Positions 18,447 to 21,155 of a DNA stretch of 64,000 nt are shown here, one piece after another. Under the pieces are notes generated by a model that was not told the origin of the DNA, did no database searches, and worked only from the letters and a program-made list of their open reading frames with translations. A program made the translations under genes and the position numbers. The stretch comes from Candidatus Marinacidobacterales bacterium (GTDB lineage: Bacteria > Acidobacteriota > Vicinamibacteria > Marinacidobacterales > SMYC01). The stretch's first letter is position 1; every line of letters begins with the position of its first letter. Location: NCBI GenBank assembly GCA_965224085.1, contig CBDCYI010000004.1:1664001-1728000 (forward strand), written 5' to 3'.

Positions 18447-18516
18447 ATGGCCCTCACTTCGGGAACCCGCCTAGGCCCCTACGAGATCCTCTCTCCAGTC
18501 GGCAAAGGGGGAATGG
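18447..18516 (+). pseudogene. Ser/Thr protein kinase, N-terminal 23 codons (split by IS110 element)
   Basis: [23 protein letters not shown]; joins in frame to GEVYKAKD at 21156. Confidence 0.92.
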
Positions 18517-18557
18517 ACTCCCCACGCCGGATCAAGAGAAAACGTTCTTCGTAATAG

Positions 18558-19826
18558 TCATCCGCGATTCGCTTTTTTTGTGGGCCACCGGGAGGGGTCG
18601 TAAAGGGTTCCTTGTCGAAGCATCGCAATGGCGATGGGGAGAATGCGGTCCATGACGCCTCTGAGAGCTCTGGCATGGCTGTGGCCTCTGTCACGAAGCC
18701 GGTCGTAGTGTTCTTTGAAGTGGGGGTCGTGCAAAACGGCAGTGCGTGCCCAATGGTGGAGAGCATTATTGAGGGGCAAAGAGCGAGCTCTCCTCATCAG
18801 GATCGTTGGTCGCAACTGACCGCGCTTGCCGCTCTTTTTTGTGACAGGAGCAATGCCGCCGAGAGTCCTGAAGGCGTTGAGATTACGGAGCCGAATGGGG
18901 TCGTGGGCATAGCAGAGCACGGAGGCGAGCACGTAAGCACCGACGCCGGGCAAAGAGGCAAGAATGGCAGGGTCGGAGCAATGCTCGTCGGTTAGTGCTT
19001 GCACGCGCTTGAACCACTTCTCGAGATGCTGGTCGGAGGCACGACGATGTTGTCGAACGAGGAGCAACTGCTGGAGTAGTAGTTGGAGATGCTCGGCGGT
19101 AGCTTGAGTGGTTGCGGTTGCGACCCGGAGAGGTTTTTGTTTGAGGGTATCGAGGATCTTCTCGGGTTTTAGACGTCGGATGCGGTGTTTTTGAGCGAGG
19201 GTCTCAATGGAGTGGCGGCTAAGAGGGTTGGGGCTGGATTCGAAGAAGAGTTTTAGGAGCTCGCAGAAAAAAGCGTCGAGAGCCTTGTCCTTTGGCGCGA
19301 GCGAGACGAGGTGAGGCCAGCAACGAGTAAGGAGTTCTCGGATCTGCGAGCTGAGGGCCACATGGTTTTTGACGAGTTGGTCGCGGGTACTCAGCAACCC
19401 GCGCATAGCGAGGATCTCCGTAGGTGGGAGATGCAAGCGCTGAAAGCGGTGGCCGTCGGTTCTGAGCGAATCGGCGAGAACGAAGGCGTCTCGCCGATCA
19501 TCCTTGGCGCCGCTCATAGAATGCCGGTCGCGGAAACGGTCGACCTGCTTGGGATTGATGGAGAAAATGGCGATGCCGTGGTCAAGAAAGAGCTCGACGA
19601 CGGCCCCATGAGGTTTTTCGATCGCCACCGCGATGCGCTCGGTATCTTGCGAGGTCTCTTCCAAAAGCCAGTCGATGGTTCCCGATAGTCCTTCGCGGCT
19701 ATGGGGGAAGCCTCTCTCCGCCAAGAAGTTACCTTTGGCATCGACCACACTGGCCAAGTGAAGCCATTGACCCAGGTCGATACCGACGAAGAAGTCGTAT
19801 TTGAGTTGATTCATGGAAGAACTCAT
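18558..19826 (-). CDS. IS110-family DEDD recombinase
   Basis: VGIDLG, AIEKP, KDDRRDA (DEDD tetrad), SLPGVG, and APVTKKSGK with the catalytic Ser. Start is 19826 or 19814. Confidence 0.93.
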   Translation of the reverse strand: MSSSMNQLKYDFFVGIDLGQWLHLASVVDAKGNFLAERGFPHSREGLSGTIDWLLEETSQDTERIAVAIEKPHGAVVELFLDHGIAIFSINPKQVDRFRDRHSMSGAKDDRRDAFVLADSLRTDGHRFQRLHLPPTEILAMRGLLSTRDQLVKNHVALSSQIRELLTRCWPHLVSLAPKDKALDAFFCELLKLFFESSPNPLSRHSIETLAQKHRIRRLKPEKILDTLKQKPLRVATATTQATAEHLQLLLQQLLLVRQHRRASDQHLEKWFKRVQALTDEHCSDPAILASLPGVGAYVLASVLCYAHDPIRLRNLNAFRTLGGIAPVTKKSGKRGQLRPTILMRRARSLPLNNALHHWARTAVLHDPHFKEHYDRLRDRGHSHARALRGVMDRILPIAIAMLRQGTLYDPSRWPTKKANRG

Positions 19827-19837
19827 TTCCGCCAGCG

Positions 19838-20020
19838 CATGTGATGTTTCATCGGCCCCTGTACTGGCGCTCGAAGCGCAACTCCCCACTGGATGTCCAT
19901 CACAAAAGAATTGCCGGCACGCATGTCCATTCCTGGCGCTAGGAGCGCAGGGCGACGTATGGCGTTGCCGGCAAGCTGCTGACGAAATCGAAAATAGTCC
20001 AAGCTCATCGTGATATTTGC
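19838..20020 (-). ncRNA. Predicted bridge RNA (target-binding loop then donor-binding loop)
   Basis: Two guide-UGCGC-loop-GCGCCA-guide units whose guides match the insertion target and the circle junction; closing stems visible. RNA ends uncertain. Confidence 0.85.
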
Positions 20021-20021
20021 T

Positions 20022-20438
20022 CTACCATGGCAATCGGAGTTGTCGCGCGATGCCACGAGTTCGTGCTCGGTTTTTTCTCGGTAGTTTCGGGCGAAGCACG
20101 TCCGAGAGTTTTTCTCGAATGTAAAGAACATAAGGCGGGTCTAGATATTGACTTTGCACTTCCTGGAGCACAGGTGAAAAATAACGAAGGGAGCGAATGG
20201 GCTGCAGTGGCTCCTCATGTTCTTGTAGCTCCCTACGAGCGCAACCCAGAAGTAGGGCACACTCGAATTCGTGTAACGGGACTCCTTGGCGGTAGAGCTG
20301 CGTCGCGATGAAGCGGTCGTCGCGCCGTGGCCGCTCAGGTGTGTTCGGAATGGAAAGATAGAGGTCCAAAATCGTCCGGACGTAATTGTTTTCTGTCAGA
20401 GCATCGCTCGTGAGCGGTTCATTACCCAGCTTCGACAT
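20022..20438 (-). CDS. Hypothetical protein (IS110 cargo ORF B, IRSLRYF motif)
   Basis: 138 aa, GGAGG RBS, overlaps ORF A by 17 nt. Confidence 0.75.
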   Translation of the reverse strand: MSKLGNEPLTSDALTENNYVRTILDLYLSIPNTPERPRRDDRFIATQLYRQGVPLHEFECALLLGCARRELQEHEEPLQPIRSLRYFSPVLQEVQSQYLDPPYVLYIREKLSDVLRPKLPRKNRARTRGIARQLRLPW

Positions 20439-20835
20439 CCTTTAGCCTCCCGCGTCGGCCGCAGATACAGCATTTGGCATATCTGATACTGTCAATCTTC
20501 GTTTTCATTGAATGAGCCATCGGGCCACTAGCTTGAATTTCACGAACTCCTAGACTGCCAGAATTACTGGGGTGAATGAACCCTTGCTCCGTCACTATTT
20601 TCGCCGCCTGGCGTAGACGATAATTCTGTTGCCGAGCCGCGTGGAGTTTTCGTGAGTTGAAACCTTTCTGGTAATTTCGGTTATTTTCGCGCTGGTTCTC
20701 TCGCCGGGTTTCGTCACGGCAGGTTGGACCGCAGTAGCACTGTCCCTGGTAACATGACTTGCAGATGAAGAAAGGCATCCCACAGCTTTTGTTGCGGCAG
20801 AAAAGCCGGAGAAGAACGACAGGTTTGGTGGCCAT
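20422..20835 (-). CDS. Cys-rich putative zinc-binding protein (IS110 cargo ORF A)
   Basis: CRNKSC..ICKSC..QCYCGPTC, then an Arg/Gln-rich helix and C-terminal CCICG. ATG 20835 chosen. Confidence 0.72.
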   Translation of the reverse strand: MATKPVVLLRLFCRNKSCGMPFFICKSCYQGQCYCGPTCRDETRRENQRENNRNYQKGFNSRKLHAARQQNYRLRQAAKIVTEQGFIHPSNSGSLGVREIQASGPMAHSMKTKIDSIRYAKCCICGRRGRLKDVEAG

Positions 20836-21155
20836 TCGGAACTCAGCAAAGTGCTGGACGATGGCCGCCCGGATGTGAGAGGCTAGCTTCAACTTGTAGT
20901 GGAGCGCCTCCTCCGGGGGCCATCCAAACATCAGAGCCCCGGTCGTTTGTAGCGGCTGGGGCTCACTATTGTCGCACAGCAGGTTCACCCTCTTCTTGCC
21001 GGCGCGAGACGATCTGACTGACTCGCGCCAAAGGCGCGAGAGGATGCTGGCCTCGCGCCAGAGGCGCGGGATGAGGCCTTGTACACAGACATTTCCTACC
21101 GACTCTTCCCGCAACACACGCTTTCGCTGCACTGATGCTTCGGCAAGCGTACAGG

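Follow-up and report, generated by a model that had tools for sequence, protein, structure and literature searches.

Do two genes that lie inside an IS110-family insertion sequence belong to the DNA that its guide RNA programmes for movement, or do they merely sit beside it? The question is raised by a 2637-bp insert in the genome of a Candidatus Marinacidobacterales bacterium (G000; GenBank assembly GCA_965224085.1), located in a 64,000-nucleotide stretch of contig CBDCYI010000004.1 (G000:C4:1664001-1728000; hereafter the window, to which all coordinates given without a contig refer). The insert is very probably one programmed IS110-family bridge-RNA element of 2637 bp, in which two conserved accessory genes, open reading frames (ORFs) A and B, are placed between the left end and the bridge RNA. 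An initial annotation had proposed the minus-strand order left end, ORF A, ORF B, bridge RNA, recombinase and right end, and the layout that we find agrees with its figures:

18447-18516, plus strand: 5′ piece of a Ser/Thr kinase gene, running from the ATG at 18447 to ...GGA ATG G; in frame with 21156 onward after removal of the insert and one core
18515-18516, unstranded: core GG (CC in element orientation) on the right-end side; all complete copies are flanked by CC on either side
18517-18557, minus strand: non-coding right end of 41 nt; closes with the 9 nt GTGGGGAGT, identical to the left donor guide; a −35-like hexamer, TTGATC, at 18530-18535
18558-19814, minus strand: IS110-family DEDD recombinase, 418 aa, with Pfam and NCBIfam profile matches
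19815-20021, minus strand: intergenic RNA region, 207 nt, between ORF B and the recombinase
19834-19980, minus strand: bridge RNA core with an outer stem, a target-binding loop (left target guide, LTG, 19950-19955; right target guide, RTG, 19927-19933) and a donor-binding loop (left donor guide, LDG, 19881-19889; right donor guide, RDG, 19858-19864)
20022-20438, minus strand: ORF B, 138 aa, overlapping ORF A by 17 nt; 72 homologues, 1793 clusters, AlphaFold2 (AF2) predicted local distance difference test score (pLDDT) 79
20422-20835, minus strand: ORF A, 137 aa, Cys-rich, with eight conserved Cys and an Arg-rich helical hairpin
20836-21153, minus strand: left end, 318 nt, non-coding; starts TGTAC, which is read by the right donor guide
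20934-20964, minus strand: leader hairpin 5′ of ORF A, with compensatory changes across IS110-type and IS21-type elements; partly degenerate in the window copy
21154-21155, unstranded: core GG on the left-end side, with the same flank pattern in complete copies
21156-21775, plus strand: remainder of the kinase gene, its frame restored after removal of the insert

The GG cores at 18515-18516 and 21154-21155 bracket the insert (18517-21153). On the plus strand, ...GGC AAA GGG GGA ATG G precedes the 18516/18517 border and ACTCCCCACG... follows it, and the 21153/21154 border lies between ...GCAAGCGTACA and GGGCGAGGTC.... Deletion in silico of 18517-21155, that is of the insert and one core, reopens the start of the kinase in frame. 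The coordinates and the restored frame thus confirm the earlier description of a 2637-bp insert that splits a kinase gene between duplicated GG cores.

The protein encoded next to the right end matches Pfam PF01548 over positions 1-155 of 155 (108.7 bits), PF02371 (45.3 bits) and the NCBIfam model NF033542, 'IS110 family RNA-guided transposase' (162.9 bits, cut-off 140), bearing out its annotation as an IS110 DEDD recombinase. Its sequence contains GIDLG, AIEKPHG, KDDRRDA and KKSGKRG, the putative catalytic positions. The following hallmarks of the IS110 group are present: DEDD and Tnp domains, a target loop and a donor loop, an RNA 5′ of the recombinase gene, a long left end and a short right end, and the same core on both sides. 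On all features that could be tested, the sequence assigns the element to the IS110 family, IS110 group, elements of which have reportedly been studied further by Hiraizumi et al. in 2024. It does not qualify as an IS21 element, having neither IstA (rve) nor an IstB AAA+ protein and sharing with that family only A and B.

A bridge RNA had been proposed between ORF B and the recombinase gene, and in this intergenic stretch we find a two-loop RNA (19834-19980), whose four guide segments surround a pair of near-identical hairpins. The target loop reads TCGCCC - TGCGCTCCTAGCGCCA - GGAATGG and the donor loop GTGGGGAGT - TGCGCTTCGAGCGCCA - GTACAGG. The LTG (TCGCCC) equals the left flank and core of the kinase site, and the RTG (GGAATGG) is the reverse complement of the core and right flank. 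On the donor side, the LDG (GTGGGGAGT) repeats the 9 nt that close the right end, and the RDG (GTACAGG) is the reverse complement of CC plus TGTAC, the opening 5 nt of the far left end. From the bridge RNA this terminus is 1.2 kb away in the upstream direction, on the other side of ORFs A and B. These guides obey the strand rule of IS621, in which, according to the accessible part of the IS621 paper, LTG and LDG correspond to the top strand and RTG and RDG to its reverse complement (PMC11208160). All four segments occurred together in none of 20000 shuffles of the intergenic region. Across 23 related sequences the RNA structure comprises 30 pairs, with 98.5% of cells paired versus at most 44% with slid partners, and with compensatory changes at 4 pairs. 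An Rfam scan of 18400-21300, at E values up to 1, gave no match.

Because the donor loop matches the right-end terminus and the core with the far left end, its guides argue that the recombination unit takes in ORFs A and B. We examined this further in relatives of the element, collected by a scan with an alignment of ORF B that yielded 85 loci (5 from genomes and 80 from metagenomes), classed by tblastn. The RDG and the left end covary. Where the RDG is GTACAGG and the left end is visible, 17 of 17 loci begin TGTAC; where it is GTATAGG, all four such loci (L056, L057, L058 and L060) begin TATAC, so that there are 0 counter-examples in 21 loci, in each of which the left end lies 5′ of ORF A, directly after the kinase-like flank. 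The RDG match and the covariation in 4/4 variant loci uphold the earlier claim that the donor guide reads the far left end and that the cargo is part of the programmed unit. The right end of L058 agrees with a changed LDG, GTGGGAAGT, and that of L060 does so over 8 nt.

A search for full-length copies, proposed in the initial annotation, found four in the same genome, three with 100% identity over 2637 nt and one with a 2-nt insertion. Since these four share the same boundaries at different sites, we conclude from their sequences that the whole 2637-bp unit moves as one. The flanks at each intact end read ...CC before the left end and CCAT... after the right end. Two internally deleted copies retain both ends. 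One deleted copy lacks 174 nt spanning the A/B junction, and a recombinase-less derivative of 1609 bp (G000:C5:333088-334696) keeps the left end, A, B, the bridge RNA and 281 nt of the right side. The deletion in this derivative has a 4-nt overlap, its site is GGMG-like, and it could be mobilisable in trans.

A second subtype, about 90% identical, is found in four places (G000:C5:1762845-1765444, C11:764578-766945, C9:747945-748783 and C4:1482119-1483630), in one of them with both ends. Its ends and guides are the same as those of the first subtype and its ORF B and recombinase are intact; the copies that hold the ORF A region all carry one common ORF A frameshift. The recombinase gene is intact in three copies of the window subtype and three of the second, and frameshifted near codon 35-39 in two copies. 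The genome also contains two one-sided fragments, one at 39784-40400 in the window. This fragment (plus strand) is 5′-truncated and matches the final 619 nt of the element at 99% identity, while a weaker resemblance already begins at about 39658. A 632-aa ORF (40363-42261, minus strand) overlaps its right end with its own 3′ end.

The clade to which the element belongs (loci L046-L081) inserts into the glycine-loop codons of Hanks-type kinases, GxGGMG/xVY (slash at the border). Read on the opposite strand, the right flanks of metagenomic loci translate to [IL]GxGGM/G in 19 of 19 cases, and the left flanks to G[EV]V[YF]xAxD in 20 of 22, the other two having a stop at the Tyr codon. The element is always oriented antisense to the kinase, and target guides vary between elements at exactly two wobble positions of GGN-ATG-GGN. 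Among seven reconstructed sites in the genome of the window, four are kinase glycine loops and three are GGMG-like sequence elsewhere; 13 TCNCCCCATNCC sites are still unoccupied. A literature search on glycine-loop kinase target preference found nothing relevant. A clade-wide choice of these codons, with guide variation at codon wobble positions, is an unusual target: a conserved protein motif provides a multi-copy landing site, at the price of inactivating signalling genes in kinase-rich bacteria. In the window, the kinase frame shifts twice 3′ of the insert, at about 21650-21950 on the plus strand (ORFs 20969-21775, 21649-22251 and 21947-22576), and because of these two shifts the interrupted gene seems to be decaying.

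How widely is the A-B pair kept? ORF B has 72 homologues in a 90%-clustered collection, none annotated and many on contigs of 2.5-3.3 kb. Thirty of the 85 loci have a recombinase 65-94% identical to that of the window, and 27 of these show the order A-B-RNA-recombinase, the contigs of the other three starting inside B. Such homologues with the same order had been suggested as a check, and the multi-gene IS110 subtype inferred earlier is supported by them: the pair is kept across the IS110 clade, and it is found in IS21-like elements as well. A further 43 loci are of IS21 type, 19 of them with A before IstA, and 12 have no transposase match, 5 of the latter being short A-B contigs. A transposase of IS110 or IS21 type therefore adjoins B in 73 of the 85. 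The IS21-type loci have the order A-IstA-IstB-B with tight or overlapping junctions, in elements of about 3.4 kb, and the identity of IstA and IstB is confirmed by Pfam. In L086, terminal inverted repeats of 43 nt, 88% complementary (488-530 and 3829-3871), lie outside A and B, and repeats of the type TGT..GCGATCAT..AAAG enclose A and B in L045, L120, L121, L113, L114, L116 and L096.

Among 400 sampled genomes of the phylum, ORF B was found in 24 other genomes, with at least 10 copies in four (a tally that includes the unpublished G107). In 12 of 12 loci from 11 other phylum genomes, B lies directly 3′ of IstB; five of these have A before IstA, and five more have distant IstA and IstB, a longer B and no A. 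Other recombinase matches in the 400 genomes (E 1e-30 or better) are all at most 44% identical and come from 9 genomes, and A-B stands beside none of 25 loci with such distant recombinases. The same-genus genome G002 (OZ240210.1) has one decayed A-B-recombinase copy. A-B is followed by a Mutator-family (IS256-type) transposase in G029 (L037) and in the unpublished genome G027 (L021), where A and B form a fused protein of 320 aa. We considered an IS256-type element that encloses A-B; convincing terminal repeats were not found in G029 or G027, and the association is one of adjacency only. In the metagenome contig L083, a DUF6431 protein (PF20020, 31.2 bits; 51-866) precedes a B homologue (996-1451), 5′ of a distant IstA-IstB-B element; DUF6431 was rejected as a relative of ORF A (hhalign probability 2.5%).

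The module also has an RNA component. The leader hairpin is GC-rich, lies 122-142 nt 5′ of ORF A and is common to both types of insertion sequence, occurring among others in L086, L112 and L121; over 25 sequences it has 11 pairs, 7 of which show compensatory changes. A T-run comes after it in the IS21 type, in the manner of a terminator. The hairpin is without an Rfam match and might serve the A/B module as a regulatory RNA or as a binding site. Within the leader, 18 nt (20916-20933) could pair at 78% of positions with the 3′ strand of the stem of the donor loop (19842-19859); by eye this is lost in L074, and it may be chance. Two palindromes, CTCGCGCC-N3-GGCGCGAG (CGCGCC-N3-GGCGCG), stand 30 nt apart in the left end at 21022-21068; the pair is kept about 200 nt 5′ of ORF A in most IS110-type relatives, and not in IS21-type ones.

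ORF A, about 133-145 aa long in the family, has conserved Cys at C13, C18, C25, C28, C35, C39, C122 and C125, which form an N-terminal zinc-ribbon-like part and a C-terminal CxxC, together with an Arg-rich segment and a VTDQGS motif. In its AF2 model (pLDDT 70), short strands are accompanied by a long hairpin of helices (37-78) and a loop that is disordered, and a strand at the C terminus lies beside the N-terminal part. The model of ORF B has five helices in one domain (residues 16-111, pLDDT about 90) and a basic tail that is disordered; the invariant motif of the protein is PIRSLRYFxP. Its C terminus (20022-20045, minus strand) is RQLRLPW after a variable basic linker, and QLxLPW or QLSFDW in relatives. 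This end, which is reminiscent of a β-clamp-binding motif, is not found in one sub-clade of the IS110 type, nor in the majority of B proteins of the IS21 type; a complex prediction of the B tail (residues 100-138) with the DnaN of the same genome gave no clear signal (0.39, versus 0.23 for the control).

Searches of ORFs A and B against Pfam, NCBIfam and PHROGs gave nothing above threshold, a profile search of PDB sequences nothing meaningful, and Foldseek of the two models against the PDB no match at E 0.001 or better; matches in the ESM Atlas were to unnamed clusters only. A wide structural search with ORF B (VIA) had as its best matches an AAA+ lid (Z 6.1) and DnaD-like proteins (Z 5.3 and 4.9), which are below the trust level for helical bundles. 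With an E-value limit of 0.001, the ORF B profile picked out 1793 clusters from 1.84 billion representatives. Four of ten longer B matches examined are A-B fusions (P0126, P0133, P0136 and P0147), and in other longer matches an N-terminal winged helix replaces A (P0197: PF13730, 31.2 bits; DnaD_N, E 0.012). Because fused A-B proteins exist, A and B probably act jointly. Over 14 pairs, the ratio of non-synonymous to synonymous substitution (dN/dS) is 0.20-0.56 for A and 0.19-0.57 for B, values that indicate purifying selection on both. Between the window copy and L046, dS is 0.65 for A and 0.09 for B; these different histories indicate that elements recombine.

A cycle can be proposed for the element on the model of IS621, whose circle rebuilds a promoter across the core, as described in the accessible text of Durrant 2024 (PMC11208160). 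A circle would be excised by recombination at the CC core. The joint of right end (RE) and left end (LE), RE-CC-LE, would then build a promoter from the −35-like TTGATC of the right end, 17 nt, and TACGCT at the left end. Such a joint promoter would read the leader, A, B, the bridge RNA and the recombinase, in that order and only from the excised form. Recombinase and bridge RNA would insert the circle at TCNCC-CC-ATNCC sites, mostly the glycine-loop codons GGN-ATG-GGN-GA. In elements with both ends, 16 of 16 have a −35-like hexamer (TTGACA, TTGACC or TTGATC) 13-14 nt before the core, and in the same 16 the left end opens with a −10-like hexamer; agreement with the promoter consensus extends to 7-10 of 12 positions.

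Several observations weigh against a single programmed unit expressed from its joint. The joint of the window copy, TTGATC-17-TACGCT, matches at 7 of 12 promoter positions only. No RE-LE joint was found in the assembled contigs from four of 24 sequencing runs, which gave no usable expression evidence either; apparent skips in those contigs join conserved kinase sequence of other genes. A consensus scan found 0 sigma-70-type promoters inside the element, in which the bridge RNA lies 1.2 kb from the junction. The TGTAC/TATAC covariation is confined to one sub-clade, its four variant loci are close kin, and it may be a single event. The LDG stops short of the core and disagrees with the right end at two positions in L061 and at one each in L077 and L080. 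The 85 loci, finally, were picked with ORF B as bait and are blind to recombinases of the clade that lack A and B. Could the insert then be a composite of a canonical IS110 element and a neighbour, either an unrelated A-B element or an IS21 remnant, with a far left end that has no function? A and B are mainly IS21-associated, so that an element of that kind was probably their source at some point in the past, and the 91%-identical copy at G000:C4:1482119-1483630 begins at the bridge RNA. However, that copy has no target-like left boundary and adjoins an unrelated open frame, and for these two reasons we read it as truncated. A composite is also at odds with the donor guide, which reads the far left end and covaries with it, and with the identical full-length boundaries of four copies at different sites. 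The initial annotation had named two observations that would speak for separate elements. One was copies with the same ends and without 20022-21153; no two-ended copy in the genome lacks the whole A-B segment. The other was a nested A-B element with its own terminal inverted repeats and target-site duplication; no inverted or direct repeat brackets A-B, and this alternative was rejected. The sole end-related inverted repeat is 14 nt long and asymmetric (18611-18624 and 21134-21147), and there are no long terminal inverted repeats. We therefore regard a composite as highly improbable.

What A and B do within the programmed unit is a separate matter. We lean, with slightly less than even confidence, towards a nucleic-acid-binding accessory pair that helps or regulates a step of transposition independent of transposase chemistry. 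An accessory role is suggested by the conservation of the pair in two unrelated transposon families, by the fusions, by its first position after the junction and by the nucleic-acid-binding look of A; independence from the chemistry, by the presence of the same pair inside IS21-like DDE elements. Doubt on a helper role comes from the second subtype, which is still in four places with its ORF A frameshifted, and from the fold and family searches, which gave no match indicating function; ORF A could be supplied in trans to the frameshifted subtype by the other one. The main rival, possible rather than probable, is that A and B are passive or selfish passengers, taken along since the donor boundary is on their far side, with no role in transposition and perhaps acting on the host or as an addiction-type pair. 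Cargo on IS110 loci is reported to be common in the available text of a recent preprint (10.64898/2026.08.14.744561), the subtype with a broken ORF A persists, and Pfam, NCBIfam, PHROGs, Foldseek and the wide structural search assign no function to the pair. Yet passengers would hardly be expected in frame and in the same position across a clade whose recombinases are down to 65% identical, with dN/dS below 0.6, nor turning up again inside IS21-like elements, as internal genes that adjoin their neighbours tightly or with an overlap; 73 of the 85 B-selected loci adjoin a transposase of either family and 5 of the remaining 12 are short A-B contigs, and the existence of fused A-B proteins speaks against the toxin-antitoxin form of this explanation. 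A and B might instead be a repressor or copy-number control of the junction-driven operon rather than a helper, which we think unlikely. ORF A is small, Cys-rich and Arg-rich, it is encoded first after a conserved leader hairpin that in IS21-type elements is followed by a terminator-like T-run, and copies with a broken A still spread; against this, B has no DNA-binding fold match.

Returning to the accessory pair, a broader proposal, which we offer as a doubtful one, is that A, B and the structured leader constitute a portable module, independent of transposase type, exchanged between IS110 and IS21 elements and adjacent to IS256-type ones. In the IS110 clade, where it is placed between the presumed junction promoter and the bridge RNA, it would be made only from the circle, and it would act on a step that junction-forming elements share, for example through host replication or repair proteins or through control of the operon. 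If true, this module would be a transposition factor of a new class, to which about 1800 unannotated protein clusters would belong.

How does the element compare with known systems? With IS621 and the IS110 group, as far as these are described in the accessible text of PMC11208160, it has in common the DEDD and Tnp recombinase, a bridge RNA 5′ of the recombinase gene, and target and donor loops; with IS621 it also shares the LTG/RTG and LDG/RDG strand rule, the core dinucleotide on both sides, the short right end and a −35-like hexamer within it. In contrast to IS621, where the accessible text has the bridge RNA filling the left end by the junction, 1.13 kb (the 318-nt left end and two genes) lies here between the left terminus and the RNA region. 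The window element further differs in that its core is CC, it targets a motif of a protein-coding gene instead of repetitive extragenic DNA, and its LDG does not extend over the core (PMC11208160, same portion). A bridge RNA that reads the donor joint from 1.2 kb away implies that RNA position and donor ends can be uncoupled. Bridge recombinases are in development as programmable genome-insertion tools, modelled as two-part systems of recombinase and RNA; if A and B raise or control insertion, such tools might be improved with their help, and the two would represent a transposon-host interface of a new kind.

The premise of the initial annotation, that IS110 elements encode nothing besides a bridge RNA and a recombinase, is outdated. 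In the part of the preprint available, IS110 loci often carry cargo, which can reach about 100 kb and consists largely of plasmid and resistance DNA gained by accretion, and whole-unit mobility drops as the size of cargo-bearing elements rises (Hu, Xie, Yang, Rubin 2026, bioRxiv 10.64898/2026.08.14.744561). The window element resembles these loci, as they are described there, in exceeding 2 kb, in having extra genes and in lacking a second transposase (10.64898/2026.08.14.744561). It is unlike the accreting loci of that text in that a fixed two-gene module is kept across a clade and the whole unit is the multiplying form. The terms zinc, kinase and 'conserved cargo' are absent from the main text (10.64898/2026.08.14.744561), whose supplements may list such elements. 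Literature searches for extra IS21 genes, or for IS110 passenger genes, of the A/B type found nothing, and supplements of papers may bear on this point.

Textbook IS21 has two genes. With the IS21-like elements described here, the window element shares the A and B families and the leader hairpin; they differ from it in having a DDE transposase, terminal inverted repeats and no guide RNA, and in that A and B flank the transposase genes, whereas in the window the two are adjacent. Cargo as such is already known in the IS110 family; more unusual is a pair of genes that is conserved across an IS110 clade and shared with IS21-like elements.

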